The translations under genes were made by a program, and so were the position numbers. Below are positions 31,527-58,327 of a stretch of DNA of 64,000 nt, in pieces. The stretch covers positions 1 through 64,000 of the forward strand of contig CAXYYO010000011.1 of NCBI GenBank assembly GCA_964293305.1. The letters are read 5' to 3'. Numbering within the stretch: the stretch's first letter is position 1; every line of letters begins with the position of its first letter. A model generated the notes under the pieces. It was not told the origin of the DNA and searched no databases. It was given only the letters and a program-made list of their open reading frames with translations. The DNA comes from an uncultured bacterium. GTDB taxonomy: Bacteria > Bacteroidota > Bacteroidia > Chitinophagales > Chitinophagaceae.

Positions 31527-31806
31527 GATGTACCCATGATGTAGTTGAAATTGGTCAAAAATAAGGGCATTAGTTAAATGTTGTAGATGGGTTGTAGCCT
31601 ATTTTTTGGTAGTAGCATACGTTGAATTTTAAGTTTGCAGCCTAATATTATTTAAAATATTAAACAAACGATTGCAGCATTTCCTACACGGTTACTTTCA
31701 CAACATCAATATGGCAGCTATACATATTGATGGATAATGTAAAGTCCAATTGTCATGCTTGTTGTATGTTTTAGATAAAACTAAATTATTAAAAATTACT
31801 CCTTTT

Positions 31807-34800: not shown

Positions 34801-34935
34801 TATTCACCACGATACGCACCTACATACACAGTAGGCCCAGACGGAAACCCTGTACCAGATCCAAATGCAATAGGCTACCCCAATGGCAATGAGTGGGAAA
34901 TAAGGACTTACATACAAATAAACATAGGCAAATAA
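31807..34935 (+). CDS. secreted clan GH-A (GH5-like, TIM-barrel) glycoside hydrolase domain fused to a ~640-aa C-terminal β-strand-rich, porin-like region
   Basis: The start is at the internal Met (MKKISTLVCLLVCTQMLFAQ signal). The catalytic-acid motif is LLFLLGNENNYG and the nucleophile motif is VVLTEFGADAY. The C-terminal half is Gly/Asn/Tyr-rich with alternating amphipathic strands (KVKLTYEGGVFKWYASG, RLSLAIERKAGKVGVSVGG). Confidence 0.6.
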   Translation: MKKISTLVCLLVCTQMLFAQQDIITVKHGADGHRLTVNGKDFIVNGMNWDYFPIGTNFTYSLWNQPADIIKAALDYEMPLLKNMGINTIRQYTGVPAKWIKYIYEEYGIYTMLNHSFGRYGLTLSGAWFPNTNYSDPRVSELLIKEVKAMTEEYKNTPGLLLFLLGNENNYGLFWRGAETEDMPQEDRQSTKDAFYLYKLFNDAVKEMKSIDKNHPMAICNGDLLFSEIIAKECTDIDILGINSYRGISFTDLYQKAAKTINKPVVLTEFGADAYNAQGNSEDQEYQAKVLVKNWKEIYANVAGMGNAGNSIGGFTFQFSDGWWKTGQTVNLDEHDPAASWSNGGYQNDFVKGENNMNEEWFGICAKGPNNERGIYQLYPRAAYYALKELHEFNPYSDAAKTQINVIDNIQITDAALRARGDKAALDAEQKSKVYLSDLQANFTTYNTGGSLISTPKEADPANNGYPNRLGFDHMQSFNIGITAKPAPNMTANVQFNVLGNVAENPIDEVFYENRGRRITVSTPTGPQQINSNNRVQLYRASYTWDTKYFNVNGFYRTGHYHWGYEGDFFGLYPEANYGPNIDIYNGDAPSGFEIKGKKFLDGFKLAFGPELWWGANPAVLLKYSKKLAGFQVSTVFHEDLTQRSGIQSSIAIPQPKTRRLSLAIERKAGKVGVSVGGLWAGQPLNGRTFQVVRGTKDNYEIFQDQIKAEDNFGGKVKLTYEGGVFKWYASGAAMGLVANGGYDNTKTYTGWRLKDNGSGNMYNFLSGFTVNVGKIQIAPNFLWQKPIEGPIPTDVPAPGRARNIQDDPFSVRINRETVAGELLLTYDPTPGTWMYEWDNDRAEDAKFAMSLDFVYRHLPTTQDAAIGILANGRTTFAFPGAAPALDLWETNLRMVSKINPEFGIIGNIYVGNGQANGSNARTIDRFGGDIRTIYKKVKLMGVAKFNDWGPFDYHRDFNLTFPLQLMLDLSTELGKPDWFLLPGTRLGVRGTYRTLDKYSPRYAPTYTVGPDGNPVPDPNAIGYPNGNEWEIRTYIQINIGK

Positions 34936-36832: not shown

Positions 36833-37675
36833 ATGAAAGCAATTTATAAAATTTTTAATCGTACACATGCACTACAATATACATTATTGTTTGCATTAGT
36901 TGGCTTATTTTCAAACTGTAAAAAAGAAAGCAAACAAACATTACTTGAAAGATCATACAAATTAGTGTGGAGTGATGATTTTGATGGAATAGCTGGCACG
37001 GCCCCTGATGGTGCAAAATGGACTTATGATATCGGTGCAGGGGGTTGGGGAAATCAAGAGTTACAGTATTATAGTAATAGTACAGAAAACGTATCTCATG
37101 ATGGATTTGGCAACTTACTTATAACAGCTACAAACAAAGGTACTGGTGGTGCTCCATTCACTTCTGGGCGAATAAAAACACAAGGTTTGTTTGGCCAAGC
37201 TTATGGAAGAATTGAGGCAAGATTAAAAACTCCGTCTGGCCCAGGTATTTGGCCTGCTTTCTGGATGCTTGGTGAAGATATCACAACAAATCCATGGCCG
37301 GCATGTGGGGAAATAGATATCATGGAATTAAGGGGTCAAGAGCCATATATCATAAATGGTACTTTACATGGTCCCGGCTATTCTGGTGGCAATTCTGTAA
37401 CAAAAACATATACACTTACAGAAGGCAGATTTGATACAGACTATCACATTTATGCCGTAGAATGGGGCACAGACTATATTGATTTCTTTGTGGATGATTA
37501 TTTATATAATCGTCTTACCCCAGCTGATCTTGCAGGTGAGTGGGTGTATAATAAACCATTCTTTTTAATTTTAAATATAGCAGTGGGCGGTACTTATGTT
37601 GGCTTCCCCACTTCAGGCACATCATTCCCTCAATCTATGGTTATAGACTATGTAAGGGTTTATGATGAACAATAA
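36833..37675 (+). CDS. GH16 family β-glucanase (laminarinase-like) lipoprotein
   Basis: It has the GH16 catalytic motif E-I-D-I-M-E (CGEIDIMELRG) and a lipoprotein signal (LFALVGLFSNCKKE). Confidence 0.85.
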   Translation: MKAIYKIFNRTHALQYTLLFALVGLFSNCKKESKQTLLERSYKLVWSDDFDGIAGTAPDGAKWTYDIGAGGWGNQELQYYSNSTENVSHDGFGNLLITATNKGTGGAPFTSGRIKTQGLFGQAYGRIEARLKTPSGPGIWPAFWMLGEDITTNPWPACGEIDIMELRGQEPYIINGTLHGPGYSGGNSVTKTYTLTEGRFDTDYHIYAVEWGTDYIDFFVDDYLYNRLTPADLAGEWVYNKPFFLILNIAVGGTYVGFPTSGTSFPQSMVIDYVRVYDEQ

Positions 37676-37797: not shown

Positions 37798-40700
37798 TTG
37801 TACATGACCACTACGATGCTTGAAACAGTTGAAATAAACAACGAAGCGTTTTTTAAAATTTCTGATACGGATGCTATGCGCCCATTCTTTATGAGCATTG
37901 TGAGCAATTCGGATCATTGGATGTTTGTATCTAGCAATGGAGGAATTTCCGCAGGAAGAAAAAATCCTGACAATGCATTCTTCCCTTATTATACAGATGA
38001 TAAAATAACCGAGCATGCAGAAAACACAGGCAGCAAAACGATATTTCAAATCAGTAAAGGAGGCACTACCTATTTATGGGAGCCATTTTCCAATCGGGGC
38101 GAAGGCCGTTATGATATTACCAGAAATATTTATCAAAATAAGTGGACAAATAAGGTACTCTTTGAAGAAATAAATCTTGACCTTCATCTTACATTCCAAT
38201 ATGAATGGAACAGTAGTAATCTATTTGGATTTGTAAAACAATCTAGGTTATTTAATAACTCCACTGAAACCATAGATGTAAAATTGGTAGATGGTTTTCA
38301 GAATATCATTCCAGCTGGTGTACCCTGCGATTTACAAACAAAAACCAGTAATCTGGCTGATGCTTATAAACGGTCAGAACTACTGCCAGCATTGGGTATT
38401 GGCATTTTTGCATTGAGTGCAATCATAGTTGATAAAGCTGAACCAGCAGAAGCACTTAAAGCAAATATTGCATGGAGTGTAGGTTTAGATAATGCGGTTT
38501 ATCTTCTTTCCCCCAACCAACTCAAAGCTTTCAGACAAAATCAAAATATATATCAAGAAGAGGATATAAAAGGAGAGAAGGGAAGCTATTTGGTAGTAAG
38601 TAATTTATCCCTTGAAGCAGGAGTACAAAAGCACTGGATGGTGATTGGTAACCTGAACCAAAATCATTCCGCGTTAGCGGCATTGTCAAACCAAATTTCT
38701 ACTGACAATGATCTGAAACATAAAATACTTGCAGATATTGAAGCGGGTACACATCAGTTAAAACAGTTGACTGGAGCGGCAGACAGTTTTCAATATACCG
38801 CTGATAAACTAAATGATACTAGGCATTTTTCCAATGTATTATTCAATATAATGCGTGGGGGTATCTTTGACAATAATTATCAAATACACAAAAAAGATTT
38901 TTTACAATATCTCCAAAAAGCAAATAAAATAGTATATCAAACTGTACAACCTGAGTTATCAAATCTTGCGGATGAATTTTCACTTTTTGGATTAAAAAAT
39001 ATTGCAGCAGCTTCGTTAAATCCTGATTTTATTAGACTGGCCACAGAATATCTGCCTCTAAAATTTAGCCGCAGACATGGTGACCCAAGTAGACCATGGA
39101 ACCAGTTTTCAATAAATATTAAAAACGAAAATGATGGGTCAGAAATATTAGATTATCAGGGTAATTGGCGAGACCTATTTCAAAATTGGGAGGCACTGGC
39201 CTACTCCTATCCCTCTTTTATTGAAGGCATGATTTCTAAGTTTTTAAATGCCACTACTTTTGAAGGGTATAATCCATATCGTGTTACAAAAGATGGCTTT
39301 GACTGGGAAACGATAGAACCTGATAATCCCTGGAGTTATATTGGCTACTGGGGCGATCATCAAATTATTTATTTATTAAAATTTTTAGAATTTTCAGAAC
39401 AACTGGATGCAGGTTCAATATCAAAAATGTTGGCAAAAAGGAATTTTGTATATGCCAATGTGCCTTATAAAATTAAGGCATATCAAGACATTGTAAAGCA
39501 TCCAAAAGACACTATCGAATTTGATCACCTTAATGAGAAAAATATACATGTAAGGATACAAGCAATGGGAGCAGACGGGGCATTGCTACAAAATCTTTCC
39601 GGTGAAATATATCGGGTAAATTTCCTAGAGAAAATACTGGCAACGCTACTCTCAAAATTATCGAATTTTATACCGGAAGCTGGCATTTGGATGAATACAC
39701 AAAGGCCAGAAGGGAATGATGCCAACAATGCATTAGTGGGCAATGGAGTATCCATGGTTACTCTATGCTATCTCCGAAGATTTTTAAAATTTTTACAGCC
39801 TGTACTTGCCAATATTGCAAAGCAAAATATTCCAATATCAAAAGAGCTTTATACGCTCTTTAATGATCTATCAAATATCTTTTCAAACAACCTAACATTA
39901 CTCTCTGCGCCTATTTCTGATAAGGATAGAAAAATCATAACTGATGCATTGGGTGAAGCAGGAAGTGCATATCGAATCCAGATTTATGAGCATGGTTTTT
40001 CTGCTGAAATGAAGGAAGTATCCGGTGCTGAACTCATTTCACTTGTTAATCATTCAATACAATTTGCAGAGCACACAATAAGAGCTAATAAAAGAAAGGA
40101 TGGTTTATATCATGCCTACAATCTTTTGAGTTTTGATGGAGAAGCAGTTCGCATTGCTTACCTCAGTGAAATGTTAGAAGGGCAGGTGGCTGTGCTAAGT
40201 TCAGGTCTGCTTTCTCCAAAAGAAAATGCTGAAGTATTAGAAGCATTAAAGAATAGTGCATTATACAGAGCAGAGCAAAACAGCTATATCCTATATCCCA
40301 ATAAATCATTACTAAAATTTTCAGAAAGAAATACGATACCCAATACAGCTGTACAAAATTCAGAGCTACTTAAGAAACTATTAAATGACAATAGTACGGC
40401 TATCCTAGAAAAAGATATAAATGGCCAGTATCATTTCAATGGCAATTTTAAAAATGCAGGCGATTTATTGATTGGTTTAAATAGACTAAGTGCAAAATAT
40501 CAATTGCTTGTAGCCAAGGAAAAAAGCATTGTTCTACAAATATTTGAAGACGTTTTCAATCACAAAGAATTTACTGGAAGGTCGGGTACATTCTATGGTT
40601 ATGAAGGCTTGGGTTCTATATACTGGCATATGGTTTCAAAATTGGGAGTGGCGGCTATGGAAGTTTGTTTGCAGGCCATTCAAGATAATGCAGATGGGGA

Positions 40701-41223
40701 GATTGTATCAAAACTCATTGCTCAGTATTATGATGTAAAAGCCGGAATTGGTGTGCACAAATCTCCACAGGTTTTTGGAGCATTTCCTATTACTCCTTAT
40801 TCGCATACGCCTTTTAATAAAGGTGCACAACAACCGGGCATGACTGGTCAGGTAAAAGAAGATATTTTATGCCGCATTGGCGAACTTGGTATAAAACTTA
40901 AAGATGGTTATCTCAAATTTGAACCACGATTATTATTTGCAGCCGAATTTTTGACACCTAAAAGTACCGCTACATTTGTACTTTCTGATGGTAGTATAAA
41001 AGAGATTTCAATGCCAGAAAATAGTTTGGCTTTTTCTATTTGTCAGCTGCCTGTTATCTATACAAAATCCCAACAAAATAAAATAGAAGTACATCATTCA
41101 AATGGTGCCATAGAATCATTTGAAGGTAATACATTGAATGCAGATATCAGTACTAAGATCTTTCAAAGAACTGGAGAAATTATTACACTCATTGTTCACA
41201 TCAATACAGACATTTTGCGATAA
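37798..41223 (+). CDS. large (1141 aa) signal-less, predicted cytoplasmic protein; candidate glycoside phosphorylase (GH94/GH149/GH161-like), function unverified
   Basis: No N-terminal hydrophobic segment is present. It sits inside the β-glucan locus and its stop overlaps the downstream GH17 start (TAATG). No family signature was confidently recognised by eye. Confidence 0.35.
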   Translation: MYMTTTMLETVEINNEAFFKISDTDAMRPFFMSIVSNSDHWMFVSSNGGISAGRKNPDNAFFPYYTDDKITEHAENTGSKTIFQISKGGTTYLWEPFSNRGEGRYDITRNIYQNKWTNKVLFEEINLDLHLTFQYEWNSSNLFGFVKQSRLFNNSTETIDVKLVDGFQNIIPAGVPCDLQTKTSNLADAYKRSELLPALGIGIFALSAIIVDKAEPAEALKANIAWSVGLDNAVYLLSPNQLKAFRQNQNIYQEEDIKGEKGSYLVVSNLSLEAGVQKHWMVIGNLNQNHSALAALSNQISTDNDLKHKILADIEAGTHQLKQLTGAADSFQYTADKLNDTRHFSNVLFNIMRGGIFDNNYQIHKKDFLQYLQKANKIVYQTVQPELSNLADEFSLFGLKNIAAASLNPDFIRLATEYLPLKFSRRHGDPSRPWNQFSINIKNENDGSEILDYQGNWRDLFQNWEALAYSYPSFIEGMISKFLNATTFEGYNPYRVTKDGFDWETIEPDNPWSYIGYWGDHQIIYLLKFLEFSEQLDAGSISKMLAKRNFVYANVPYKIKAYQDIVKHPKDTIEFDHLNEKNIHVRIQAMGADGALLQNLSGEIYRVNFLEKILATLLSKLSNFIPEAGIWMNTQRPEGNDANNALVGNGVSMVTLCYLRRFLKFLQPVLANIAKQNIPISKELYTLFNDLSNIFSNNLTLLSAPISDKDRKIITDALGEAGSAYRIQIYEHGFSAEMKEVSGAELISLVNHSIQFAEHTIRANKRKDGLYHAYNLLSFDGEAVRIAYLSEMLEGQVAVLSSGLLSPKENAEVLEALKNSALYRAEQNSYILYPNKSLLKFSERNTIPNTAVQNSELLKKLLNDNSTAILEKDINGQYHFNGNFKNAGDLLIGLNRLSAKYQLLVAKEKSIVLQIFEDVFNHKEFTGRSGTFYGYEGLGSIYWHMVSKLGVAAMEVCLQAIQDNADGEIVSKLIAQYYDVKAGIGVHKSPQVFGAFPITPYSHTPFNKGAQQPGMTGQVKEDILCRIGELGIKLKDGYLKFEPRLLFAAEFLTPKSTATFVLSDGSIKEISMPENSLAFSICQLPVIYTKSQQNKIEVHHSNGAIESFEGNTLNADISTKIFQRTGEIITLIVHINTDILR

Positions 41224-42473
41224 TGAGCAAACTGTCATCCATCATATTAATTTGCATAATGGCCTGCGCTTGCGGCTATGGTTCAAAGATTGATTCTGTA
41301 GAAAGAACGGCTGCAGAAATTTTGGGCGATAAAAACTATCAAGCAATATGTTATGGAGGATACAGATCCACCACAAGAGATGTAGCCCCAACAGTGGCAG
41401 AAATAAAAGAAGATTTAAAAATATTATCCGCACTAAACTTTAAGATTTTAAGAACATACAATGTCTATTTGCCAGAGATAAATAACCTGCTTCAAGCCAT
41501 TGCGGAGCTAAAAAAAGAAATCTCAAATTTTGAAATGTATGTAATGATGGGTACATGGATTGATTGTAAAAATGCATGGACAAGTGCAGCTCCTATTCAT
41601 ACAGAAGAAAGTGATAAAAACGCAACAGAAATAGCAACAGCTGTACAGTTGGCCAATCAATACCCTGATATTGTAAAAATTATTGCCGTAGGCAATGAAG
41701 CAATGGTAAACTGGGCTACAGGATATTATGTTACTCCAGATATCATCCTAAAATGGGTTACCCATTTACAAACACTGAAACAGGAAAATAAGTTGCCAAA
41801 AGATTTATGGATAACTAGTTCTGACAATTTTGCCTCTTGGGGTGGCGGTGGAAATGAATATCATGTACCTGCATTGGAGGCGCTTGTAAAAGCTGTTGAT
41901 TATATATCTGTGCATACCTACCCCATGCATGATACACATTACAACCCTGCCTTTTGGGGCGTAAAAGTATCTGAGCAAAAGCTTAGTAATAAACAGCAGA
42001 TTGATGCTGCTATGCTGCGTGCAAAATGGTATGCAGTAGCACAATATGACAGTGTAGTATCTTACATAAAGTCAATAGGTGTAGAAAAACCTGTACATAT
42101 TGGAGAAACGGGCTGGGCATCAGTATGTAATGAACTGTATGGTCCAAATGGTTCAATGGCTGTGGATGAATACAAATCTGCACAGTATTATCATTTAATA
42201 AGGGACTGGTCAAATGCAAATAATATAAGTTGTTTTTTCTTTGAAGCTTTTGATGAAAGCTGGAAGAATAGTGCAAATCCAATGCATTCAGAAAATCATT
42301 TTGGTTTAATCAATTTACAATCCGAAGCAAAATATGCTCTTTGGCACCAGGTAGATGCAGGAGCGTTAAAAGGCTTAAGTAGAAATGGCATGCCCATTTC
42401 CAAAACATATAATGGTAATGATACCCTTTTATGGAAAGATGTACTAACGCCAAAAAAAATATTAAATGATTAA
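41223..42473 (+). CDS. GH17 family β-1,3-glucanase/transglycosylase lipoprotein
   Basis: It has a lipoprotein signal (IILICIMACACGYGSK). The GH17 catalytic motifs are IAVGNEAMVNW (acid/base) and HIGETGWAS (nucleophile). Confidence 0.8.
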   Translation: MSKLSSIILICIMACACGYGSKIDSVERTAAEILGDKNYQAICYGGYRSTTRDVAPTVAEIKEDLKILSALNFKILRTYNVYLPEINNLLQAIAELKKEISNFEMYVMMGTWIDCKNAWTSAAPIHTEESDKNATEIATAVQLANQYPDIVKIIAVGNEAMVNWATGYYVTPDIILKWVTHLQTLKQENKLPKDLWITSSDNFASWGGGGNEYHVPALEALVKAVDYISVHTYPMHDTHYNPAFWGVKVSEQKLSNKQQIDAAMLRAKWYAVAQYDSVVSYIKSIGVEKPVHIGETGWASVCNELYGPNGSMAVDEYKSAQYYHLIRDWSNANNISCFFFEAFDESWKNSANPMHSENHFGLINLQSEAKYALWHQVDAGALKGLSRNGMPISKTYNGNDTLLWKDVLTPKKILND

Positions 42474-44019
42474 AATGCTAAAAGTCCAACACTACCATAA
42501 AAAAATTGTATCGTATTTAATTTTTGTGTTTATGATGATCACTACAATTACAAGCTGCACCGGTAATGAAACATTCACAACAGAAGTATATGAAACAGCT
42601 GCAAATGGTAATGCCTTAACGCTAATCACTGATCAATCTTCAAAGGAAGCACCAATAGAAATAACCATAAACCCAGAAGAAAAATATCAAACCATTACAG
42701 GATTTGGTGGTTCGTTTACACAAGCTACTGCTACCCTGCTCAATCAAATGAGTGATACAAATCGTAAAAAAATTTTAGCAGCATATTTTGGTGATGATGG
42801 TGCAAGATATTCATTAACCAGAACCCATATCAACTCCTGCGATTTCTCTACTCACAATTATGCCTATGCTAATGAGCCCGGAGATACTGCACTCAATAGC
42901 TTTTCCATTGATGAGGATAGAAAAGCATTAATCCCAATAATTAAACAAGCTATGAGCCTTTCAACCGAAGGGTTTAAAATAATATCATCACCTTGGTCAG
43001 CACCACCTTGGATGAAAGATAATAATGATTGGAGAGGTGGAAAACTATTGCCACAATACAACAATACATGGGCCAAGTACTTTGCAAAGTATTTAGATGC
43101 CTATAAAAAAGAGGGTATTGATATATGGGGTATCACTGTAGAAAACGAGCCCTTGGGTAATGGAAAGAATTGGGAAAGTATGGATTTTTCTCCTGAGGAA
43201 ATGACAGCATTTGTAAAAGATTTTCTAGGTCCCTATCTCGAAAACAATGGCCATGCCTCCGTAAAGATTTTAGGCTATGATCAAAACCGTGGGGATGCTT
43301 TAAAACAATGGGCAGATGTAATGTATGCTACTGAATCGTCTTCAAAATATTTTTCAGGAATGGCGGTACATTGGTATGCCAGTACTTATGATGTATTTCC
43401 TGAATCATTACAACATACTTATGAAAAAGCCCCACAAAAATATATCATCAATACAGAGGCTTGCATAGATGCCGATGTACCACATTGGAAAGATGACAAT
43501 TGGTATTGGAGCAAGGAAGCCACAGATTGGGGTTGGGATTGGGCAAGTGAAGCAGAAAAATATTTGCATCCAAAGTATGCCCCAGTATTTCGATATGCCA
43601 ATGATATAATCGGGTGTTTAAACAACAGGGTAGATGGATGGATAGATTGGAATATGGTTTTAGATAAACAGGGTGGCCCAAACTGGTTTAAGAACTGGTG
43701 TACAGCTCCTGTAATTGTAGATACAACCACAGATGAAGTTTATTTTACACCACTATTTTATACCCTTTCCCATTTTAGTAAATTCATAAGACCCGGTGCT
43801 GTAAGAATTGGGTTCACAAATCAAGATAGTTCATTACAAGTTACTGCTGCGCAGAATCCGGATGGCTCCATGGCCATTGTACTTTTTAACCCAACAGAAA
43901 ACGATAAAAATTATAATATCACCTTCGGTGAAAAAAAAATAGCTAGCATCATTCACGGAAAAGCAATACAAACCGTAGTCATAAAAAAATCAAATCAAAC
44001 AAGCAATGACAAAAAGTAA
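42466..44019 (+). CDS. GH30 family glycoside hydrolase (β-1,6-glucanase-like) lipoprotein
   Basis: It has the GH30 hallmarks TITGFGGSFT and SPWSAPPWMK, the acid/base ITVENEP and a lipoprotein signal (ITTITSCTG). It overlaps the neighbouring genes by 8 nt and 14 nt. Confidence 0.8.
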   Translation: MIKMLKVQHYHKKIVSYLIFVFMMITTITSCTGNETFTTEVYETAANGNALTLITDQSSKEAPIEITINPEEKYQTITGFGGSFTQATATLLNQMSDTNRKKILAAYFGDDGARYSLTRTHINSCDFSTHNYAYANEPGDTALNSFSIDEDRKALIPIIKQAMSLSTEGFKIISSPWSAPPWMKDNNDWRGGKLLPQYNNTWAKYFAKYLDAYKKEGIDIWGITVENEPLGNGKNWESMDFSPEEMTAFVKDFLGPYLENNGHASVKILGYDQNRGDALKQWADVMYATESSSKYFSGMAVHWYASTYDVFPESLQHTYEKAPQKYIINTEACIDADVPHWKDDNWYWSKEATDWGWDWASEAEKYLHPKYAPVFRYANDIIGCLNNRVDGWIDWNMVLDKQGGPNWFKNWCTAPVIVDTTTDEVYFTPLFYTLSHFSKFIRPGAVRIGFTNQDSSLQVTAAQNPDGSMAIVLFNPTENDKNYNITFGEKKIASIIHGKAIQTVVIKKSNQTSNDKK

Positions 44020-45448
44020 AACAGATCCAAAAGACATTGTGCCTTTTGGGCAGAAAGTAGCTTTTGGTGCCGGCAATCTTACCAATCAACTATTACCGGC
44101 GGCCTTAGGTGTATTTATGTTTTTCTTAGTAGTAGGCTTTGGTATGAATCCTACAAAAGCTGGTATCCTTGCTGCCATACCAAGATTTATTGATGCCATT
44201 CTCGATCCTATCATGGGATATATCTCAGACAATACAAGGTCCAAATGGGGTCGTAGAAAACCTTATATTTTTGGAGGTGCTATCATTACGGGATTGTCTT
44301 TTATACTCATGTGGCAATTAAAAATACCTGTAGAAGGAAATAATAATGAAACGTATAATTTCATTTACTTCCTTATCATGTCTGTGGTTTTTTATTTAGG
44401 GTATACTGTTTTTGCAGCACCATTAATAGGGTTAGGATATGAAATGACACCAGACTATAATGAGCGTACTCGGTTAATGGCCATGAGCCAAATTATGGGT
44501 CAAATAGCATGGATGATTGCACCTTGGTTTTGGTTTCTTATTTCTAGGCCTGAAATATTTCCAAATGCCCCTACAGGTGTAAGACAACTCTCTGTTTGGG
44601 TAGGTGTATTGTGTTTGATAATGGGTATAATGCCAGCTATCTTTTGCAAAGAGGTTGATCAAGCTAATCTACAGGGTCAAACAAAATTATCTATGAAAGA
44701 TTTAGTTGCCAATATGAAACATTTTTTTGGCGACATTAAAAAAACAATCACTAACAAACCATTCTTACGACTATGTGGAGCTACTTTTTTAGTATTTAAT
44801 GGATTTCAAATAGTGGCACAGTTTGCCTTCTTCATCATTATCTTTTATATGTATAATGGAGATCAGGCAGCGGCAGGTCAGTGGCCAGCATGGTTTGGAA
44901 CTGTAAGTGCTTTAGTTACTGCTACTTTGGTTATTCCAATCATCACATACATGTCCACAAAAATTGGTAAGAGAAACGCATTTATTGTTTCTACTATTAT
45001 ATCCATTGTTGGATATTCACTTAAATGGTTTGGATTTTCACCGGGCAATCCTTGGTTAATGTTTATGCCCATACCATTGATGTCATTTGGTATAGGTGGT
45101 TTATTCACTTTAATGATGAGTATGACTGCTGATGTATGTGATTATGATGAATTAAAAAATGGAATGCCACGCAAAGAAGCATTGTTTGGCGCAGTGTACT
45201 GGTGGATGGTTAAATTAGGAACATCATTAGCATTGTTTATAAGTGGAGTGGTACTGAGCAGCGTTGGGTTTGATCAAAACGCCAAAGAACAATCAGCATC
45301 TGCTATAACTGCACTGCGTATGGCTGATGTTATTGTGCCATCAATAGCAGGGCTGCTTGCCATTGTAGTAATGTGGGGATATAATATTTCTGAAAAAAGA
45401 GCCATTGAAATCAGAGAAGAATTAATCATTAGAAGAGGTAAATTATAA
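44006..45448 (+). CDS. GPH family (MFS_2; glycoside-pentoside-hexuronide:cation) symporter
   Basis: The 480-aa ORF has about 12 TM helices. The GPH signature is DPIMGYISDNTRSKWGRRKPYIFGGA (D-x3-R...GRR-P). Confidence 0.8.
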   Translation: MTKSKTDPKDIVPFGQKVAFGAGNLTNQLLPAALGVFMFFLVVGFGMNPTKAGILAAIPRFIDAILDPIMGYISDNTRSKWGRRKPYIFGGAIITGLSFILMWQLKIPVEGNNNETYNFIYFLIMSVVFYLGYTVFAAPLIGLGYEMTPDYNERTRLMAMSQIMGQIAWMIAPWFWFLISRPEIFPNAPTGVRQLSVWVGVLCLIMGIMPAIFCKEVDQANLQGQTKLSMKDLVANMKHFFGDIKKTITNKPFLRLCGATFLVFNGFQIVAQFAFFIIIFYMYNGDQAAAGQWPAWFGTVSALVTATLVIPIITYMSTKIGKRNAFIVSTIISIVGYSLKWFGFSPGNPWLMFMPIPLMSFGIGGLFTLMMSMTADVCDYDELKNGMPRKEALFGAVYWWMVKLGTSLALFISGVVLSSVGFDQNAKEQSASAITALRMADVIVPSIAGLLAIVVMWGYNISEKRAIEIREELIIRRGKL

Positions 45449-45470: not shown

Positions 45471-47813
45471 ATGTCAAACCATACAGGATCAGTTGCTAAA
45501 GTACCCATGATTCAAAAAATAGCTTTCGGACTTGGCATGCTTGCCAATCAAATGTTTCCGGCAGCTTTGGGCATATTCATGGTAGTGCTGGTAGAAGATT
45601 TAAAATTTCCTGCATGGATGTGGGGTTTCTTATTTTTTGTACCACGCATATTTGATGCTTTTGTAGATCCCATCATGGGTTTTATAACTGACAATACCAA
45701 GTCAAAGTGGGGAAGAAGAAGGCAGTATGTATTTGCTGGTGCCATTCTAATGGGCATTTCATTTATTGCCATGTGGCAGCTATACAGAGAAAATGGTATT
45801 GATTATAATTTCATTTATTTCCTCATCTGGTCTTTTCTGTTTTATTTAGGATTATCAATATTCAGTGTACCTTATGTAGCCATGGGATATGAAATGAGTG
45901 ACGATTTTCATGAGCGCACAAGTATCATGGCCATTTCCCAATGGATTGGTCATTGGGCTTGGGTTATAGCACCTTGGTTTTGGGTGGTTATGTATGATAA
46001 AGGGTGGTTTGTAAATGCCGATACAGCCACAAGAACGCTGGCTATATGGGTAGGTGTGGTTTGTATGCTACTCGCCATGACGCCTGCCTTTTTTATTAAA
46101 AGTAAATCTACATTAAACGAAGAGAGTTATACACCATTAAGTATGAAAACAATTGGTGGTAGTCTCAAAGAAATATTTGAAAGTTTTAAAGAAGCATTCA
46201 AGCTTAAAGCATTTAGAAAACTCTGTATAGCTACATTTTTTATCTTCAATGCATTCAACACAGTAGCAGGGTTTACTTTCTTCATTGTTGTATATCATTT
46301 GTTTGGCGGCAAAGCAGAAGATGCGGGTATCTGGCCTACATTATTTGGTAGTGTGGGTGCATTGGTTACTACATTTATTGTTATTCCAATAGTCTCTTTT
46401 ATTTCAAAGAAAATGGGTAAAAAATCTGCGTTCTTGTTATGTCAGGGCATATCCATTCTTGGTTATATTATGTTGTGGTTTTTCTTTATCCCGGGCAAGC
46501 CATATATGTTTCTTTTTGCATTACCATTTTTCTCTTTTGGCATAGGAAGTTTATTTACTTTGATGATGAGTATGACCGCAGATGTATGCGATATGGATGA
46601 ACTTTCATCAGGAAAAAGAAGGGAAGGAATTTTTGGTGCTATCTATTGGTGGATGGTGAAATTTGGGTTTGCCATTGCAGGTTTATTAACCGGAGTTATT
46701 ATGTCTGGGGTTGGCTTTGTGCCGGGTGCAGACACACAGGCAGATGGCGCTATTACAGGGCTACGATTATTTTTCTCAGGCATACCCATTGCAGGTACAT
46801 TAATAGCCATGTGGGTAATGCGAAATTATGATTTGAATGAAGAAAAAGCTAGAGAAATAAAAGCAGAATTAGATAGAAGAAAAGCTAGTCCAAAAATATC
46901 TTCTGGATACCAGGCCGGAAATTTGTGGCAGAGAGCAAGCCATCTTCAACTGCCTCATTTTACAGGAGCCCCCTTACAGCAAATGACTGAAGATAAAATT
47001 AAAGAAATGTTTGCCTTTCAACTAAAAAAAGGAGTACATGGTCTATGTTTTAGTCCTTATCTTGAAGGTCAAGATGCAGGGGATATATTGATTGAATCAG
47101 AAACAAAAGCAAGGGTGGAAATTGTGGCGCCTCATACCCAGTGGGTCCGTTCTTTCTCAACTACAGCAGGTCATGAAATCATTCCATCATTTGCAAAAGA
47201 AAAAGGACTGAAAACAGTAGCCGGGGCATGGATAAGTAATGATAAATTGCAAAATGAAAAAGAAATTGCAAACCTTATACAACTTGCAAAAGCGGGTAAA
47301 GTTGATATAGCAACAGTAGGCAATGAAGTTTTGCTGCGCAATGAATTAAATACAGCTGATCTTGTAGCATATATTAACAAGGTAAAGGAAGCAGTACATC
47401 CGGTGCCGGTTAGTTATGTTGATGCCTATTTTCAATGGATAGAACATCCGGAGTTGATAGATGCTTGCGATATGGTGATGATAAATTGCTATCCATTCTG
47501 GGAGGGTTCATCAATCGAAAATAGCTTGGATGATTTACGAAAAATGTATTTACTGATGAAGCAATCTGCTCCAAATAAAAAAGTTATTATTGCAGAAACC
47601 GGATGGCCAAGTGAAGGGGATAATATAAATAATGCAACACCCTCTACGCTGAATGCTCAAAAATATTTTCTAGCAGTACAGGAATGGGCTATCAAAGAAA
47701 ATATTGAGCTCTTCTATTTTTCATCTTTTGATGAAACATGGAAAATAAAACAAGAAGGAGCATTGGGAGCTAGATGGGGCATTTGGAATAAGGATGAAAA
47801 ATTAAAATATTAA
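45471..47813 (+). CDS. GPH family symporter (aa ~1-470) fused in frame to a C-terminal GH17 domain (aa ~490-780)
   Basis: The N-terminal half has ~12 TM helices and the signature DPIMGFITDNTKSKWGRRRQYVFAGA. The C-terminal half has the GH17 motifs ATVGNEVLLRN and IIAETGWPSEGD. It is closely paralogous to 47828-48724, and both end ...WGIW(N/D)K.E.LKY. Confidence 0.75.
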   Translation: MSNHTGSVAKVPMIQKIAFGLGMLANQMFPAALGIFMVVLVEDLKFPAWMWGFLFFVPRIFDAFVDPIMGFITDNTKSKWGRRRQYVFAGAILMGISFIAMWQLYRENGIDYNFIYFLIWSFLFYLGLSIFSVPYVAMGYEMSDDFHERTSIMAISQWIGHWAWVIAPWFWVVMYDKGWFVNADTATRTLAIWVGVVCMLLAMTPAFFIKSKSTLNEESYTPLSMKTIGGSLKEIFESFKEAFKLKAFRKLCIATFFIFNAFNTVAGFTFFIVVYHLFGGKAEDAGIWPTLFGSVGALVTTFIVIPIVSFISKKMGKKSAFLLCQGISILGYIMLWFFFIPGKPYMFLFALPFFSFGIGSLFTLMMSMTADVCDMDELSSGKRREGIFGAIYWWMVKFGFAIAGLLTGVIMSGVGFVPGADTQADGAITGLRLFFSGIPIAGTLIAMWVMRNYDLNEEKAREIKAELDRRKASPKISSGYQAGNLWQRASHLQLPHFTGAPLQQMTEDKIKEMFAFQLKKGVHGLCFSPYLEGQDAGDILIESETKARVEIVAPHTQWVRSFSTTAGHEIIPSFAKEKGLKTVAGAWISNDKLQNEKEIANLIQLAKAGKVDIATVGNEVLLRNELNTADLVAYINKVKEAVHPVPVSYVDAYFQWIEHPELIDACDMVMINCYPFWEGSSIENSLDDLRKMYLLMKQSAPNKKVIIAETGWPSEGDNINNATPSTLNAQKYFLAVQEWAIKENIELFYFSSFDETWKIKQEGALGARWGIWNKDEKLKY

Positions 47814-47827: not shown

Positions 47828-48724
47828 ATGTCATTTAGAAAAGAAAACATATTATCACTTCGGCCAGATTCAGCAAGTAGCTATGTAGCCGGTGAATCAG
47901 AAGATACGCTTAAAGATTTATTTGCAGAAATAATGCAAAATGGGGTACATGGATTTTGTTTCAGTTTATATGAAGATGGACAAAAACCGGGTGATATCAT
48001 TTCTGAGGCACAGGTGCGTCGCCGCATGAATATCTTAAAGCCGCATACAAAATGGATACGTTCATTTTCCTGCACAGAGGGAAATGAATGGATACCTCGA
48101 ATAGCTAAAGAAATGGGCATTAAAACCCTAGTAGGTGCATGGCTTGGCAATGATCCTGAAATTAATAAAAGAGAAATTGAAGGATTACTTCAGTTAGCCA
48201 AAGAAGGTTTGGTAGATATTGCTGCGGTGGGCAATGAAGTGATGTACAGAAAAGATCTTACCGAAGATGAATTACTCGAATTCATCCACCATGTAAAATC
48301 TGAAATACCACATATACCCGTTGGCTATGTAGATGCATATTATGAGTTTTCTCATAGACATAGAATTACAGAAGCTTGCGATGTTATACTCTGCAATTGT
48401 TATCCATTCTGGGAAGGATGCCCCATTGATAATTCATTGGATTATATGAAGCAAATGTATTATCAAGCCAAAGCGGCAGCCAATGGAAAGGAAGTAATCA
48501 TAACAGAAACGGGCTGGCCAAGTATGGGTGAAACGCTCAAAGGCTCTGTACCATCAGAAAAAAGTTCAAGAGATTATTTTATTAATACACAATTATGGTC
48601 AGCCAATGATAATATACCCACATTCTATTTTTCATCTTTTGATGAGTCTTGGAAGGTAGGGGCGGAAGGTGTGGTAGGCGCTTACTGGGGCATTTGGGAT
48701 AAGCATGAAAATCTGAAATACTAA
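47828..48724 (+). CDS. GH17 family protein without signal peptide (predicted cytoplasmic)
   Basis: The 298-aa ORF has AAVGNEVMYRK and IITETGWPSMGE. The N-terminus MSFRKENILSLRPDSASSYVAGESED has no hydrophobic leader. Confidence 0.8.
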   Translation: MSFRKENILSLRPDSASSYVAGESEDTLKDLFAEIMQNGVHGFCFSLYEDGQKPGDIISEAQVRRRMNILKPHTKWIRSFSCTEGNEWIPRIAKEMGIKTLVGAWLGNDPEINKREIEGLLQLAKEGLVDIAAVGNEVMYRKDLTEDELLEFIHHVKSEIPHIPVGYVDAYYEFSHRHRITEACDVILCNCYPFWEGCPIDNSLDYMKQMYYQAKAAANGKEVIITETGWPSMGETLKGSVPSEKSSRDYFINTQLWSANDNIPTFYFSSFDESWKVGAEGVVGAYWGIWDKHENLKY

Positions 48725-48726: not shown

Positions 48727-49668
48727 ATGAATTTTTTTGATCAATATGGCTTGAAGCCTGCAAAAGCAATTTGCTATTCCGGGTTTAGAAATGGGCAGCA
48801 GCCGGGCAGCATCTATCCGTCTTATGAGGAGGTGAAAGAAGATTTGTTATTACTTCAAAACGAATGGAAATATCTTCGCTTATATGATTGTGATACTCAT
48901 GCGCAAACAGTTCTTGATGTTATTCATAAAGAACAGTTTGATTTTAAAATAATGCTTGGGGCGTATATAGAAGCTGAAATGAATAATTTTGGTTGCCCTT
49001 GGGGGGGTGGTGTTTTTGAGGAAAAGCAATTGGAAGTAAATGCTCTACGCAATGAGCAGAAAATAAAACAACTCATTGAATACGCAAATCAGTTTCCCGA
49101 TATTATTTTTTCCTTATCTGTGGGCAATGAGGCTTGTGTTGATTGGACAGATCATTTTGTGCCTGTAAGCAAAGTAGCTGAGTATGCCAATTTGGTAAAG
49201 AAAAATGCCAAACAGCCAGTTACATTCTGCGAAAACTATTTGCCTTGGATCAATCAATTGAAGCCTGCCATTGAAGCATTTGATTTTATATCCATACATA
49301 CTTACCCAGTATGGGAGTATAAGCATATTCATGAATCAATAGAATATACAAAGCAAAATTATTATGCTGTAGCTAATCAATTTCCTGATAAAATTGTTAC
49401 CATAACAGAAGCTGGATGGGCTACCAATTCAAATGGAAGAGGTATAAACCCAGAGCATGTGAATGAAGAAAATCAAAAGATATATTTTGAAAGTCTGATG
49501 GAATGGAGTGAAAAGGAAAAAATATTGACCTGTTTTTTTGAAGCATTTGATGAACCTTGGAAAGGCTCAAATCATCCTATGGAACCAGAAAAGCACTGGG
49601 GATTATTTAGGGAAAATAGAAGTCCTAAGTTGTCAATGCAGCACAAAAATATCCTCACTTTTAATTAA
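48727..49668 (+). CDS. GH17 family protein without signal peptide (predicted cytoplasmic)
   Basis: The 313-aa ORF has LSVGNEACVDW and TITEAGWATNS. The N-terminus MNFFDQYGLKPAKAICYSGFRNGQQPG has no leader. There is a 2-nt gap from the upstream gene. Confidence 0.75.
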   Translation: MNFFDQYGLKPAKAICYSGFRNGQQPGSIYPSYEEVKEDLLLLQNEWKYLRLYDCDTHAQTVLDVIHKEQFDFKIMLGAYIEAEMNNFGCPWGGGVFEEKQLEVNALRNEQKIKQLIEYANQFPDIIFSLSVGNEACVDWTDHFVPVSKVAEYANLVKKNAKQPVTFCENYLPWINQLKPAIEAFDFISIHTYPVWEYKHIHESIEYTKQNYYAVANQFPDKIVTITEAGWATNSNGRGINPEHVNEENQKIYFESLMEWSEKEKILTCFFEAFDEPWKGSNHPMEPEKHWGLFRENRSPKLSMQHKNILTFN

Positions 49669-49809: not shown

Positions 49810-52158
49810 ATGTTTAAAAAATTTACATGCATGCTCAGCCTTCTGGTATTTGCCTTATCAGCAAATGCACAGTTGGTAGTATTTTCGGATGATTATGCTC
49901 CAGGCGTAACATTCGCAGCTTTTGGTGGCTCCACCAACACACTTTCTATTGACAATAGTCAAAGTTATTCAGGTACTTCTTCTCTAAAAATACCTGTTAC
50001 TGCCGGCTATACAGGTGGTGCATTAGTAGCCCCTGCACCCACAGATTTAAGCGCTTACACAGCACTCACATTTTGGGCAAAAAATGATAATCCAGCATTC
50101 AAATTAGATGGTGTGGGTATTGCCAACAATGCAACCACTACCGTATATGCAGTAGAGCGCAATGGTGTAGTGCTATCAGCTACATGGACCAAGTATTATA
50201 TCCCAATTCCTGTTGCTTCAAAGCTTACTGCAGAAACTGGTCTATTCCATTTTGCAGAAGGAGCTGGTGAGGGTGCATATAATATTTGGATAGATGATAT
50301 TCAATATGAAAATGTATCAAGTATCCTCTTAGGAACCCCAACTGCAGCATTTGCTACTGAATCAATTACAAAAGCTGCCGGAGAAGGATTTAATCCAAAT
50401 GGTACCGTTTCTACTTATCCTATTGTAGCAGAAGGTGCCATGCAAACTGCTAGACCTTATTTTACATGGATGAGTTCAAATAGTGCTGTAGCAACCATCG
50501 ACAACTTAGGAGCTGGTACAGCAGTAGCACAAGGTACAGCTACCATATCAGCCATGCTGGGAACTATTGCCGCAGCAGGCAGTCTTACTGTAAATGTTAC
50601 AGCTCCATTGGAACAACCTTCAGCACCTGCGCCTACTCCTCCTGCTAGAAATACTACTGATGTAATTTCACTTTTCAGTAATGCATATTCAAATAACGCG
50701 GTGGATACTTGGTCAACAGGTTGGAGTAGTGGCAATCATAAATACACAGAATTGCAGATAGCTGGTAACGATACAAAAAAATATGAACTCTATCATTTTG
50801 CCGGAATTGAATTCTTTGCAGCTCCAGTTGATGCTACAAATATGGAATTTATGCATTTAGATGTTTGGACATCTAATGGTACAAGCCTTGATGTTAGGTT
50901 GGTAGATTTTACTGGTGTTTCACCCACCGAAGCTACAGTTACAAGTGCAACAGCAACTGGTCAATGGGTTGCTTTAGATATTCCGCTTAGCAGTTTCACA
51001 ACACTAAGTTCAAGATCAAAATTGTCCCAAATGCTTTTATTGGTTCCACCAAGCACTTCGGCAACATATTTTGTAGATAACATATACTTCTACAAGGGAG
51101 GTGGTTCTATGGGTTCTGAACCAACAACAGCAGCCCCAACACCTACAGGAAACCCAGAAGGTGTTATATCTTTATTTAGCAACGCCTATACAAATGAACC
51201 GGTAGATACATGGTCTGCACCATGGGATCAAGCTGATGTAGCTGATGTACAAGTGGCAGGTGATGATACAAAAAAATACACCAATCTAACATTTGCAGGT
51301 ATAGAGTTTACAACTAATCAAATTGATGCTTCAACAATGGATTATTATCATGTTGATATCTGGACACCAGATGCTACAAATTTTAATATCAAGTTAGTTG
51401 ATTTTGGTGCTGATGGAGCTTATGCCGGTGGAGATGATACTGAATCTGAATTATCTTTTACACCTACACTTAGTGGATGGGTTAGTTATGATATTCCTTT
51501 GGCAGACTTTACCGCACTAGCATCAAGAGCACACCTTGCACAGATGTTATTTATATCTTCTACCAGCACAGTTTATGTAGATAATGTTTACTTCTATAAC
51601 AAACTACTTCCTGTAAGCTTTAGCGGCTTTAATGTAAGTAAGAAAGGAAACACTTCATTACTAAAATGGAGTACCGCTACTGAAATAAATAATAAAGGAT
51701 TTGCAGTAGAAAGAAGTACAGATGGCAATAGTTGGAAAGAAATATTATTTGTAAAATCAACTGTTGTAAACAGTACTTCAACAAATAACTATACTGCTAC
51801 AGATGCTTTACCAATACAAGGCAAGAATTATTATCGTATCAAACAAGTAGATCTTGATGGAAAGTCAACCATCACCAATGTACAGAGTTTAGACTTCGAT
51901 AAAATTGGAAACATTTTCTCTGTATATCCAAATCCGGTTAGAAATATCATGAATATCAAACTGGGTCAGATACAAAATAATGCAGTGAGTTACCAATTGA
52001 TGAGCAGTAATGGTAAAGTAGTATTGAATGGTAAATTTGATAAGCAACTGTCCCTTACAAGCCAAACTTTAAATGTAAGTAATTTGGCACACGGCACATA
52101 TATCATGATGCTTGCTGATGGTAGTCAAAAACAAACAATGACAATCATTATCAATTAA
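49810..52158 (+). CDS. T9SS-secreted paralogue of the 34943-36805 glycan-binding protein (β-sandwich + Big_2 + two CBM-like repeats + T9SS type-A C-terminal sorting domain)
   Basis: It has a signal peptide (MFKKFTCMLSLLVFALSANAQ). The repeats are RNTTDVISLFSNAYSNNAVDTWS... and NPEGVISLFSNAYTNEPVDTWS... The C-terminal ~80 aa carry the T9SS CTD hallmark SVYPNPVRN and end ...GTYIMMLADGSQKQTMTIIIN. Confidence 0.75.
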   Translation: MFKKFTCMLSLLVFALSANAQLVVFSDDYAPGVTFAAFGGSTNTLSIDNSQSYSGTSSLKIPVTAGYTGGALVAPAPTDLSAYTALTFWAKNDNPAFKLDGVGIANNATTTVYAVERNGVVLSATWTKYYIPIPVASKLTAETGLFHFAEGAGEGAYNIWIDDIQYENVSSILLGTPTAAFATESITKAAGEGFNPNGTVSTYPIVAEGAMQTARPYFTWMSSNSAVATIDNLGAGTAVAQGTATISAMLGTIAAAGSLTVNVTAPLEQPSAPAPTPPARNTTDVISLFSNAYSNNAVDTWSTGWSSGNHKYTELQIAGNDTKKYELYHFAGIEFFAAPVDATNMEFMHLDVWTSNGTSLDVRLVDFTGVSPTEATVTSATATGQWVALDIPLSSFTTLSSRSKLSQMLLLVPPSTSATYFVDNIYFYKGGGSMGSEPTTAAPTPTGNPEGVISLFSNAYTNEPVDTWSAPWDQADVADVQVAGDDTKKYTNLTFAGIEFTTNQIDASTMDYYHVDIWTPDATNFNIKLVDFGADGAYAGGDDTESELSFTPTLSGWVSYDIPLADFTALASRAHLAQMLFISSTSTVYVDNVYFYNKLLPVSFSGFNVSKKGNTSLLKWSTATEINNKGFAVERSTDGNSWKEILFVKSTVVNSTSTNNYTATDALPIQGKNYYRIKQVDLDGKSTITNVQSLDFDKIGNIFSVYPNPVRNIMNIKLGQIQNNAVSYQLMSSNGKVVLNGKFDKQLSLTSQTLNVSNLAHGTYIMMLADGSQKQTMTIIIN

Positions 52159-52226
52159 GTTAGAAAATAAAATTCACCATTTTTTGGTGAAAAAATATTG
52201 CTGAAATAGATTCAGATAATATGTAG

Positions 52227-52258
52227 AGAGGCTGTCTTTTTAGGCAGCCTCTTTTTTT
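52227..52258 (+). terminator. rho-independent terminator closing the β-glucan locus
   Basis: AGAGGCTGtctttttaggCAGCCTCTTTTTTT. Confidence 0.8.
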
Positions 52259-56888: not shown

Positions 56889-58295
56889 TTACTTTGTCAT
56901 ATCTAACATTGTCCAACCTTTCCACCAATCAGCATTATCAGTTCCACATGCACCTCTGTAAGCAACTGGTGTAAGTGTAGATAATTTTGAACTGGTAAAT
57001 GAAGCACCCGAAAGAAGAGGACTTCCTACCTTTGGAGTAAAGTCAGGATTGGTATAATTAAAAGCATTGGTTAATGCTACTTCATCATTCGTTGTGTAAA
57101 TTGTATTACTGTTTGAAACATCAGTAAACCAGTTTGTAAAATCTTGTGTAGTCCATCCAGTGGGCGATGAGGAACTAGCAGCATAACTTAATGGCGTATT
57201 GCTTCCTGCTATCACATTATTTTGTAGTAGCATAGAACCAGTGCCAATATTCAAATCAGTAGGTGTGCCCTTACTACCATCTAACAAGATACCGGTTGGA
57301 TATCCCATAAATACTGAATTGAAAATAGAAATGCTTGTATTACGACGTAAATGTGCGCCAGAGCCGTAGTTTGAACTACCCACATTTGTCAAAGATTGGC
57401 GTGGTCCTATAATGGTGATATTACTATATACCGCAGTGGTAAGCGGCGTTATTGTACTACCATTAGCATCATTATCACTCTCAAAACCATTACTTTTTGA
57501 AATATCTGCTACAGCACTATCTCTTAATACGATAACCCATTGTACAGTTCCACTGTAACCATTGTCAGTATCTAAATCATCATCTAATGTACTTGCAATC
57601 ACCAAATGTCTTAAATCTACCGAACCTCCAAAGCATTCAACACCATCATCATTTGCTTTGAATATTTCTACATAATCAATACTGGTTCCTTTACCTACAC
57701 CAGCCAATGTAAGGCTATTGATTTCATTATCTGGCAAATAGGCGTATCCAGCATATTCAATCCTTACATAACGTTGTATTCCACTGTTGTCGTTATTGTC
57801 TACACCGCCATACACACCAAGTTGTTCGGCATTATTAATGCCACCTTCAATAGAACCAATACCCTGTGTGCCATTAAAAGATGCGTTGGTAGTGGCATTA
57901 CCCAATATTATAATACCACCCCAGTCACCACGGCTAGGTAAGGATTCATCACTTGTAAAAATGATGGGCTTATCTTTTGTGCCGTCTGCAATGATTTTTG
58001 CACCTCTAGTAATCACCAATGTACCTCTGGAAGTAACACCTTTTTCTCCATGAATTTCTGTACCTGGCTCTATCGTTAATGTAGCTCCATTGATTACATA
58101 CACAATGCCACGTATTTGGTAGATATTTCCTGCTTTCAAAGTACGATCAGCAGAAATTTTTCCTTCTAATACTAATTGCTCTTCAATTTCATTGCCACCT
58201 CCGTTATCTGGAGTGCCATCTACTTCAATTTTTCTGCAACTCCACTGCATCGTGATAATGCTAAGAATCAAAGAATAAATAATTGTTTTTTTCAT
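56889..58295 (-). CDS. lipoprotein with parallel β-helix-like repeats, encoded immediately downstream of the TonB-dependent receptor
   Basis: The 468-aa ORF has a lipobox (ITMQWSCRK) and repetitive short β-strand segments (NITIIG, NNVIAG, Gly/Asn/Thr/Asp-rich). Confidence 0.5.
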   Translation of the reverse strand: MKKTIIYSLILSIITMQWSCRKIEVDGTPDNGGGNEIEEQLVLEGKISADRTLKAGNIYQIRGIVYVINGATLTIEPGTEIHGEKGVTSRGTLVITRGAKIIADGTKDKPIIFTSDESLPSRGDWGGIIILGNATTNASFNGTQGIGSIEGGINNAEQLGVYGGVDNNDNSGIQRYVRIEYAGYAYLPDNEINSLTLAGVGKGTSIDYVEIFKANDDGVECFGGSVDLRHLVIASTLDDDLDTDNGYSGTVQWVIVLRDSAVADISKSNGFESDNDANGSTITPLTTAVYSNITIIGPRQSLTNVGSSNYGSGAHLRRNTSISIFNSVFMGYPTGILLDGSKGTPTDLNIGTGSMLLQNNVIAGSNTPLSYAASSSSPTGWTTQDFTNWFTDVSNSNTIYTTNDEVALTNAFNYTNPDFTPKVGSPLLSGASFTSSKLSTLTPVAYRGACGTDNADWWKGWTMLDMTK

Positions 58296-58327
58296 TTTTC
58301 TAGTCTATAATTTTATTTTATATATTT

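Follow-up and report, generated by a model that had tools for sequence, protein, structure and literature searches.

A predicted laminarin-uptake fusion of a GPH transporter and a GH17 domain in a Chitinophagaceae genome, orthologous by sequence to Formosa FbGH17B

On which side of the inner membrane does a glycoside hydrolase act when it is built as the tail of a sugar transporter, how old is such a fusion, and has it been seen before? These questions are raised by a stretch of 64,000 nucleotides from an uncultured bacterium of the Chitinophagaceae (contig CAXYYO010000011.1 of assembly GCA_964293305.1, positions 1 to 64,000; hereafter the window, meaning the whole stretch of DNA analysed), in which an uninterrupted open reading frame (ORF) of 780 codons with an ATG start (45471..47813, + strand) joins an MFS_2 transporter of the GPH family to a GH17 domain. 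The fusion is read here as the protein responsible for uptake across the inner membrane in a cluster for laminarin (β-1,3-glucan) utilization, in which uptake would be followed by cleavage, and a probability of about 0.8 is given to this mechanism as a whole. By sequence, the protein is an orthologue of FbGH17B of Formosa and is already known: the idea and the protein family were published in 2018, and the window holds a further orthologue rather than a discovery. Laminarin is among the ocean's largest carbohydrate pools, and for a transporter to bring its own glycosidase would be an elegant coupling of uptake to breakdown. The additions made here are modest: a predicted cytoplasmic location of the GH17 domain, an apparently ancient pair of fused and free copies with a diagnostic residue, the taxonomic breadth of the fusion, and a probable second GPH::GH17 family.

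Domain organization and relation to FbGH17B

Each half of the polypeptide is recognized by a Pfam profile, MFS_2 (PF13347) at residues 19–457 (E 4e-64) and GH17 (PF00332) at residues 684–780 (E 3.5e-12; 47 bits vs a gathering cut-off of 28.2). An AlphaFold2 model built on 47 homologues, with a mean predicted local distance difference test score (pLDDT) of 80.4 and a predicted TM-score (pTM) of 0.56, orders the chain as 12 long transmembrane (TM) helices, a short amphipathic helix (residues 457–472), a disordered stretch (residues 473–478, pLDDT <50) and the GH17 barrel. ORF, profiles and model agree with the original prediction, made from the DNA letters alone, that a GPH carrier is fused in frame to GH17 within a single 780-residue ORF.

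The GH17 module (residues ~479–780; 46905..47810, +), identified by its match to the solved structure 4wtp and by its invariant residues, consists of an N-terminal extension and an eight-stranded (β/α)8 barrel spanning residues 522–762, as in clan GH-A. Barrel strand 613–618 runs into E619 of the VGNEV motif (codon 47325–47327), the acid/base that follows β4, and strand 704–710 holds E709 of ETGWPS (codon 47595–47597), the nucleophile that follows β7. Both motifs had been picked out beforehand, and E619, E709, GNE, ETGW and the W677–E678 pair are invariant in the 47 homologues; Leu622 (codon 47334–47336), three residues after the acid/base, is taken up below. To judge by its intact catalytic residues, the domain is complete and should be catalytically competent.

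The transporter half (residues 1–455; 45471..46835, +) aligns with MelB (PDB 4m64) over residues 11–472 in phmmer and can be superposed on MelB structures by Foldseek at a TM-score of 0.83, normalized to the target; the MFS_2 profile match and the MelB-like 12-TM fold place it in the GPH family (TC 2.A.2). The conserved helix-II motif is D62-x3-D66, whose two aspartates are invariant and align with MelB D55/D59, and the GRRR loop lies at residues 81–84. Of the motif originally read as D-x3-R...GRRR, the second element thus stands, whereas a literal D-x3-R was searched for and not found.

A hydropathy scan shows eleven strongly hydrophobic segments and a Trp-rich TM5 (residues 150–174), the latter being a helix in the AlphaFold2 model. 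Lysine and arginine number ~35 in the predicted inside loops vs ~6 in the outside loops, a strong positive-inside bias, and no 13th membrane segment was found after residue 460, where the 19-residue Kyte–Doolittle hydropathy reaches a maximum of 0.89. Both termini of MelB are cytoplasmic. Because there are 12 TM helices, a positive-inside bias, no 13th segment and an end-to-end match to MelB, the GH17 domain of the fusion is almost certainly cytoplasmic, as predicted from sequence and model, and lies at the inner face of the transporter where it had first been placed.

The amphipathic helix and the disordered connector (46836..46904, +) mark the junction. Unfused MFS genes of related loci end in the same amphipathic helix that stands before the fusion point, and the free GH17 paralogue in the next gene begins with MSFRKENILSL, which aligns with fused residues ~477–490. 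Since the free-paralogue starts align there, most of the ~20-residue linker that had been supposed belongs to the N-terminal extension of GH17; on this alignment the true connector is ~3–8 residues (about 6) long, the two genes having been joined almost end to end.

A counterpart is on record. Unfried et al. (2018) described FbGH17B, the product of FORMB_24740 of Formosa sp. Hel1_33_131, as an N-terminal 12-helix MFS domain followed by a C-terminal GH17 domain, and expressed and assayed it as an exo-β-1,3-glucosidase that releases glucose from debranched laminarin and from the oligosaccharides made by FbGH17A (PMC6246565). There, FORMB_24740 is annotated as a cytoplasmic membrane protein with 12 TM helices and is induced by laminarin, the MFS–GH17 fusion is reported by BLAST to be common in marine Flavobacteriia and is discussed as a fusion of a transporter with a carbohydrate-active enzyme, and the supplement gives the gene order as GH2 (24670), GH16, GH16, PKD, GH149 (24710), GH17A (24720), GH30 (24730), MFS (24740) and GH17 (24750) (PMC6246565). 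The window fusion is collinear with the Formosa sp. Hel1_33_131 protein P0152 over its full length (65% identity, 780 vs 778 residues, 6 gaps), and P0152 carries at position acid/base+3 the Met published for FbGH17B. The window protein has the architecture of FbGH17B, an N-terminal 12-TM MFS_2/GPH domain and a C-terminal GH17 domain in one polypeptide, and the context GH149–GH17A–GH30–fusion–free GH17 that defines FORMB_24740 orthologues. The original prediction, which knew of no characterized GPH–GH17 fusion, had thus been overtaken by the 2018 assays. By analogy with the Formosa orthologue, the window fusion would have exo-β-1,3-glucosidase activity and be induced by laminarin.

Distribution and age of the fused and free GH17 copies

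Among 5.8 billion proteins searched, an exact match was accompanied by more than 120 full-length clusters at 67–94% identity, all with both Pfam domains, and a survey with one genome per species placed relatives in at least 581 species genomes. Loci were counted in the best 80, comprising 66 of Bacteroidota type and 14 of Burkholderiales, and 77 of these 80 have the fused gene. With hundreds of independent assemblies containing the fusion, an artefact of assembly is ruled out, and the worry about a frameshift or indel, raised along with the call to look for the same fusion in related genomes, is removed by the uninterrupted ORF and by full-length clusters of such varied origin.

Isolates with the fused gene include Lacinutrix, Winogradskyella, Algoriphagus, Flavobacterium filum and Rubrivivax albus. 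The fusion reaches past marine Flavobacteriia to Chitinophagaceae (Chitinophagales), Saprospiraceae/Lewinellaceae (Saprospirales), Cyclobacteriaceae and other Cytophagales, and Balneolales. Among Burkholderiales it is present in Rubrivivax, Hydrogenophaga, Variovorax, Rhodoferax and Rhizobacter, at loci of 56–73% guanine plus cytosine (G+C), and the encoded proteins are 61–65% identical to that of the 36%-G+C window; these fusions suggest transfer between phyla. The gene order of the Burkholderiales loci (L019, L024, L026, L029, L033, L036-L038, L044, L048, L051, L056, L072 and L076, including the isolate Rubrivivax albus ICH-3) is different: the free GH17 and a third GH17-like gene, GH17c, lie upstream or are encoded on the other strand. 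At acid/base+3, the signature position, the two GH17 copies both carry Leu.

In the window the gene next to the fusion (47828..48724, +; position of FORMB_24750) encodes a free-standing GH17 paralogue of 298 residues without a signal peptide. As originally noted, it shares the C-terminal motif WGIW(N/D)K.E.LKY with the fused domain, to which it is 50% identical over 275 residues. When 78 fused and 74 free GH17 modules were placed in a neighbour-joining tree, the free copies all fell into one clade and 71 fused copies into another, seven divergent fused copies branched outside both, and the window's two copies were each placed in their own class. Bootstrap support for the exact clades is moderate (free, 16/30; fused, 9/30), and the case for an ancient origin therefore leans on the 50% identity and on conserved co-occurrence as much as on the tree: the pair is found together in 61 of the 66 Bacteroidota-type and 11 of the 14 Burkholderiales loci, as well as in Formosa. 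Within one genome the fused and free copies have a mean identity of 55%, no higher than across genomes. On this evidence the duplication and fusion are ancient and the pair is co-conserved; the recent fusion or fission event first proposed does not hold.

Three loci carry an unfused MFS gene (472–480 residues) followed by a free-clade GH17: L050 in Flagellimonas (= Muricauda), L053 in Maribacter and L073 in Saprospiraceae. The MFS of L050 and of L053 nests among the fused MFS halves, and the placement of that of L073 is less resolved. Because GH17 in L050 and L053 is of the free clade and the MFS is nested among fused halves, the tethered domain appears to have been deleted and not split off, so that fission of the fused gene in Flagellimonas/Muricauda and Maribacter was rejected in favour of secondary loss. 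Loss in the L050 lineage would explain the published arrangement in Muricauda, an MFS gene with MlGH17B, the free-standing β-1,3-glucanosyltransglycosylase of Muricauda lutaonensis (PMC11005184). The window's free copy shares 63% identity with the free GH17 of L050, and MlGH17B is predicted to group with the window's free gene and not with the fused domain, a placement made by gene position in Muricauda and by its description, not by its own sequence.

The seven fused genes whose GH17 modules lie outside both clades (L011, L042, L045, L049, L054, L066 and L079) combine ordinary MFS halves (72–81% identity) with divergent GH17 halves (47–54%), and these GH17 halves keep Tyr or Phe at the signature position. 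Domain replacement and gene conversion are possibilities. That Tyr or Phe in these domains compensates for a missing free copy was considered and rejected, as six of the seven also have a free Tyr copy.

Used by itself in a library-wide search, the GH17 module matched 1072 representatives at E ≤ 1e-30, with many different architectures. P0250 (796 residues) combines an N-terminal GH30 with a C-terminal GH17 from the same sub-clade; the window encodes these two enzymes in separate, adjacent genes. A second MFS_2::GH17 family in high-GC bacteria comprises P0264 (763 residues; L081:8001-10292) and P0245 (L082:10-1731), which are 52% identical to each other and are joined at the same point as the window protein. 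Their transporter halves are ~25% and their GH17 halves 42% identical to those of the window, whereas within the main family conservation is higher in the transporter half (66–81% vs 47–61% for GH17). This reversal suggests that P0264 and P0245 have another GPH carrier and are probably the product of an independent fusion. The P0264 locus (69.5% G+C) also encodes GH81, two GH16, two GH17, glucokinase, G6PD and PGI.

Gene cluster, proposed mechanism and rival readings

The order of genes in the window, GH2-like, GH16, GH149, GH17A, GH30, MFS::GH17 and free GH17, matches laminarin polysaccharide utilization locus (PUL) 2 of Formosa. Beyond a divergent Y_Y_Y/Reg_prop regulator (28572..31526, −), the cluster opens with a GH2-like protein (31750..34935, +), assigned by Formosa gene order to the position of FORMB_24670, and continues with a GH16 lipoprotein that has an N-terminal signal (36833..37675, +) and a GH149 β-1,3-oligoglucan phosphorylase (37798..41223, +; 1431 bits, E = 0 to 6hq6). 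A GH17 endo-laminarinase-type lipoprotein (41223..42473, +) occupies the position of FbGH17A/MlGH17A, an assignment made from synteny and a lipoprotein-like N-terminus with a Pfam GH17 match below the gathering score; a GH30 protein with a lipoprotein-like signal (42466..44019, +) stands, by synteny, at the position of the β-1,6-glucosidase FbGH30. Next comes a stand-alone MFS_2 protein recognized by Pfam (44006..45448, +; 480 residues), which is 49% identical to the fused transporter half and belongs to a separate paralogue lineage, seen among the 80 loci in only two of Saprospirales type (L009 and L073) and absent from the Formosa cluster. Downstream of the fusion and the free GH17 lie GH17c (48727..49668, +; 313 residues), present in 13 of the 66 Bacteroidota-type and 7 of the 14 Burkholderiales loci, and a secreted protein sorted by the type IX secretion system (T9SS; 49810..52158, +; Big_2 and Por_Secre_tail by Pfam), the last gene before a strong intrinsic-terminator-like hairpin (52225..52254, +; 13 bp stem and T run) that closes the cluster. 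Overlaps of 1 nt (GH149/GH17A, 41223), 8 nt (GH17A/GH30, 42466–42473) and 14 nt (GH30/MFS, 44006–44019), and gaps of only 22, 14 and 2 nt between MFS and fusion, fusion and free GH17, and free GH17 and GH17c, would fit one operon with translational coupling.

GH149, the free GH17 and GH17c are without signal peptides and GH16, GH17A and GH30 carry lipoprotein-type signals, a distribution that points to two compartments, with trimming in the periplasm or at the surface, import, and then cytoplasmic processing. In the mechanism proposed, a GPH/MelB-type cation symporter would import the laminari-oligosaccharides left by the lipoproteins GH16, GH17A and GH30; the tethered GH17, on its connector of ~6 residues, would cleave each oligosaccharide as it emerges in the cytoplasm, releasing glucose by analogy with FbGH17B; and the free Tyr-bearing GH17, GH17c and the GH149 phosphorylase would finish processing there. 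Within this scheme we infer the transported substrate, the order of transport then cleavage, and how work is shared with the free paralogue. The nearest solved relative of GH17c is the periplasmic endo-laminarinase FbGH17A (6fcg, E 2e-25), and an apparently cytoplasmic enzyme of endo type implies fairly long oligosaccharides in the cytoplasm.

The division of labour concerns the residue at acid/base+3. In MlGH17B, Tyr136 (Tyr102 of RmBgt17A), Trp191 and Glu192 are important for transfer, and FbGH17B has Met at the Tyr position (PMC11005184). RmBgt17A (4wtp) is the nearest solved structure to the fused GH17 domain (E 2e-31 by sequence and 1e-38 by family profile; TM-score 0.86, root-mean-square deviation 2.3 Å). 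The Trp–Glu pair is invariant in both the fused and free classes. At acid/base+3, the 78 fused domains carry Leu (51), Met (9), His (7), Gln (4), Phe (3) or Tyr (4), and the 73 free ones Tyr (60) or Leu (13, mostly Burkholderiales). The window follows this pattern, its fused copy having Leu622 (VGNEVLLR) and its free copy Tyr (VGNEVMYR), so that the fused domain has the W677–E678 pair but not the Tyr of the β-1,3-glucanosyltransferase signature, which the free paralogue retains. This would fit a tethered hydrolase working beside a free transglycosylase, a division that we infer from one signature residue.

Some points weigh against the proposed mechanism. MelB D19, which binds sugar, and D124, of the cation site, are replaced by Gln27 and Ser132 in the fusion, and MelB K18 by Asn26; sugar and cation specificity are therefore not transferable, and neither the coupling ion nor the substrate is assignable from MelB. 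At a pTM of 0.56, the relative placement of the two domains is not reliably modelled. Finally, both the nearest solved GH17 and the characterized protein closest to the free paralogue are transglycosylases, an analogy that leaves pure hydrolysis less than certain. In a rival reading the tethered GH17 is mainly a β-1,3-glucanosyltransferase, disproportionating or branching, that remodels imported oligosaccharides for GH149 or for storage. Its best solved match and the invariant Trp–Glu pair needed for transfer would agree with this, and the authors of the MlGH17B study raise a possible undetected transglycosylase activity in FbGH17B (PMC11005184); however, the signature residue is Leu here and non-Tyr in 74 of 78 fused domains, against Tyr in 60 of 73 free ones, and FbGH17B released glucose in assays (PMC6246565), which makes a chiefly transferring enzyme unlikely. 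Were the GH17 domain to face the periplasm, it would cut oligosaccharides to glucose outside and leave the transporter to import glucose, a topology made very improbable by the even number of TM helices, the positive-inside bias with both termini inside, the lack of an extra hydrophobic segment between TM12 and the barrel, the full-length MelB match and the free paralogue of the same module, which has no signal peptide.

A role in β-glucan biosynthesis and export, with the MFS half exporting products of a GH17 transferase as in an NdvB/NdvC-like system, draws on the proteobacterial cyclic-glucan synthases, which fuse a GH17 transferase to GT2 or membrane domains, and on the reversibility of GH149. 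Yet the cluster has no GT2, its neighbours are the catabolic lipoprotein glycosidases GH16, GH17A and GH30, the second-family locus of P0264 adjoins glucokinase, G6PD and PGI, and growth on laminarin induces the orthologous cluster in Formosa (PMC6246565), so that this role is scarcely credible. The adjacency of paralogues with the same C-terminal motif could also speak for a recent fusion or fission in this lineage, or for an assembly frameshift; the chance of either is close to nil given 50% identity, copies that group with their own classes from other orders and phyla, the wide co-occurrence of the pair, the many independent assemblies with the fused ORF, and the unfused loci L050 and L053 (L073 being less resolved), whose retained free-clade GH17 speaks for loss elsewhere and not in the window's lineage. 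An extension of the preferred uptake–cleavage reading is offered only tentatively, as rather doubtful: transport would come first and cleavage second, unlike the published wording, which suggests that cleavage comes first; the architecture would have arisen at least twice, from unrelated GPH carriers; and a Leu/Met tethered hydrolase, a Tyr free transglycosylase and GH149 would form a cytoplasmic β-1,3-glucan counterpart of the MalQ/MalP pathway.

Other features of the window were recorded alongside. The 782-residue T9SS protein contains the motif ~'VISLFSNAY(S/T)N..VDTWS..W....AG(N/D)DTKKY...FAGIEF' twice (residues ~283–330 and ~447–495); self-BLAST of the protein at E 1e-5 did not report the repeat, and the doubled motif suggests carbohydrate-binding-like modules in tandem. 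The gene for a TonB-dependent receptor (58328–61138, −; CarboxypepD_reg and Plug domains) is followed by one for a 468-residue protein without a Pfam match (56889–58295, −); the two (56889–61138, −) may represent the SusC/SusD-like pair missing from the glucan cluster itself. Scanning the window for Rfam families and tRNA genes gave no matches, and a sigma-70 promoter scan, which is not applicable to Bacteroidota, found 71 sites vs 69.9 expected by chance.

Comparison with characterized systems

Pseudomonas NdvB/Glt1 (GH17–GT2) and Bradyrhizobium NdvC/Glt20 resemble the window fusion in that a transferase-like GH17 is joined to another membrane-associated module. In these proteobacterial proteins GH17 is N-terminal, the partner is a glycosyltransferase or other membrane domain and the role is biosynthetic, whereas the partner in the window is a GPH carrier in a catabolic cluster. 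MelB, the GPH prototype (PDB 4m64/7l16), shares with the transporter half the 12-TM fold and the helix-II aspartate pair, but at ~18% identity, with the replacements of K18, D19 and D124 given above and without a C-terminal enzyme domain.

For the GH17 half, RmBgt17A, the β-1,3-glucanosyltransferase of Rhizomucor miehei, has the same catalytic Glu pair and Trp–Glu pair; it is a secreted fungal enzyme of only 28% identity, with Tyr102 where the fused domain has Leu622. MlGH17B resembles the window's free gene in its GH17 sub-clade, its length of ~295 residues, its Tyr at acid/base+3 and its lack of a signal peptide; the fused domain does not correspond to it, and in Muricauda-type loci the transporter is unfused. 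The closest likeness is to FbGH17B (GenBank AOR29491, laminarin PUL 2), with which the window fusion shares the two-domain architecture, a near-equal length and the catalytic motifs. Neither has Tyr at acid/base+3, and the genes around them are the same, the free GH17 downstream (FORMB_24750 in Formosa) among them. The two differ in that FbGH17B has Met at acid/base+3 where the window fusion has Leu, and the window cluster adds a stand-alone MFS_2 upstream of the fusion and a third, predicted cytoplasmic, GH17-like gene downstream. The host, too, is not a marine Formosa: its nearest named relatives are metagenome-assembled genomes of Chitinophagaceae, at 70–74% identity.

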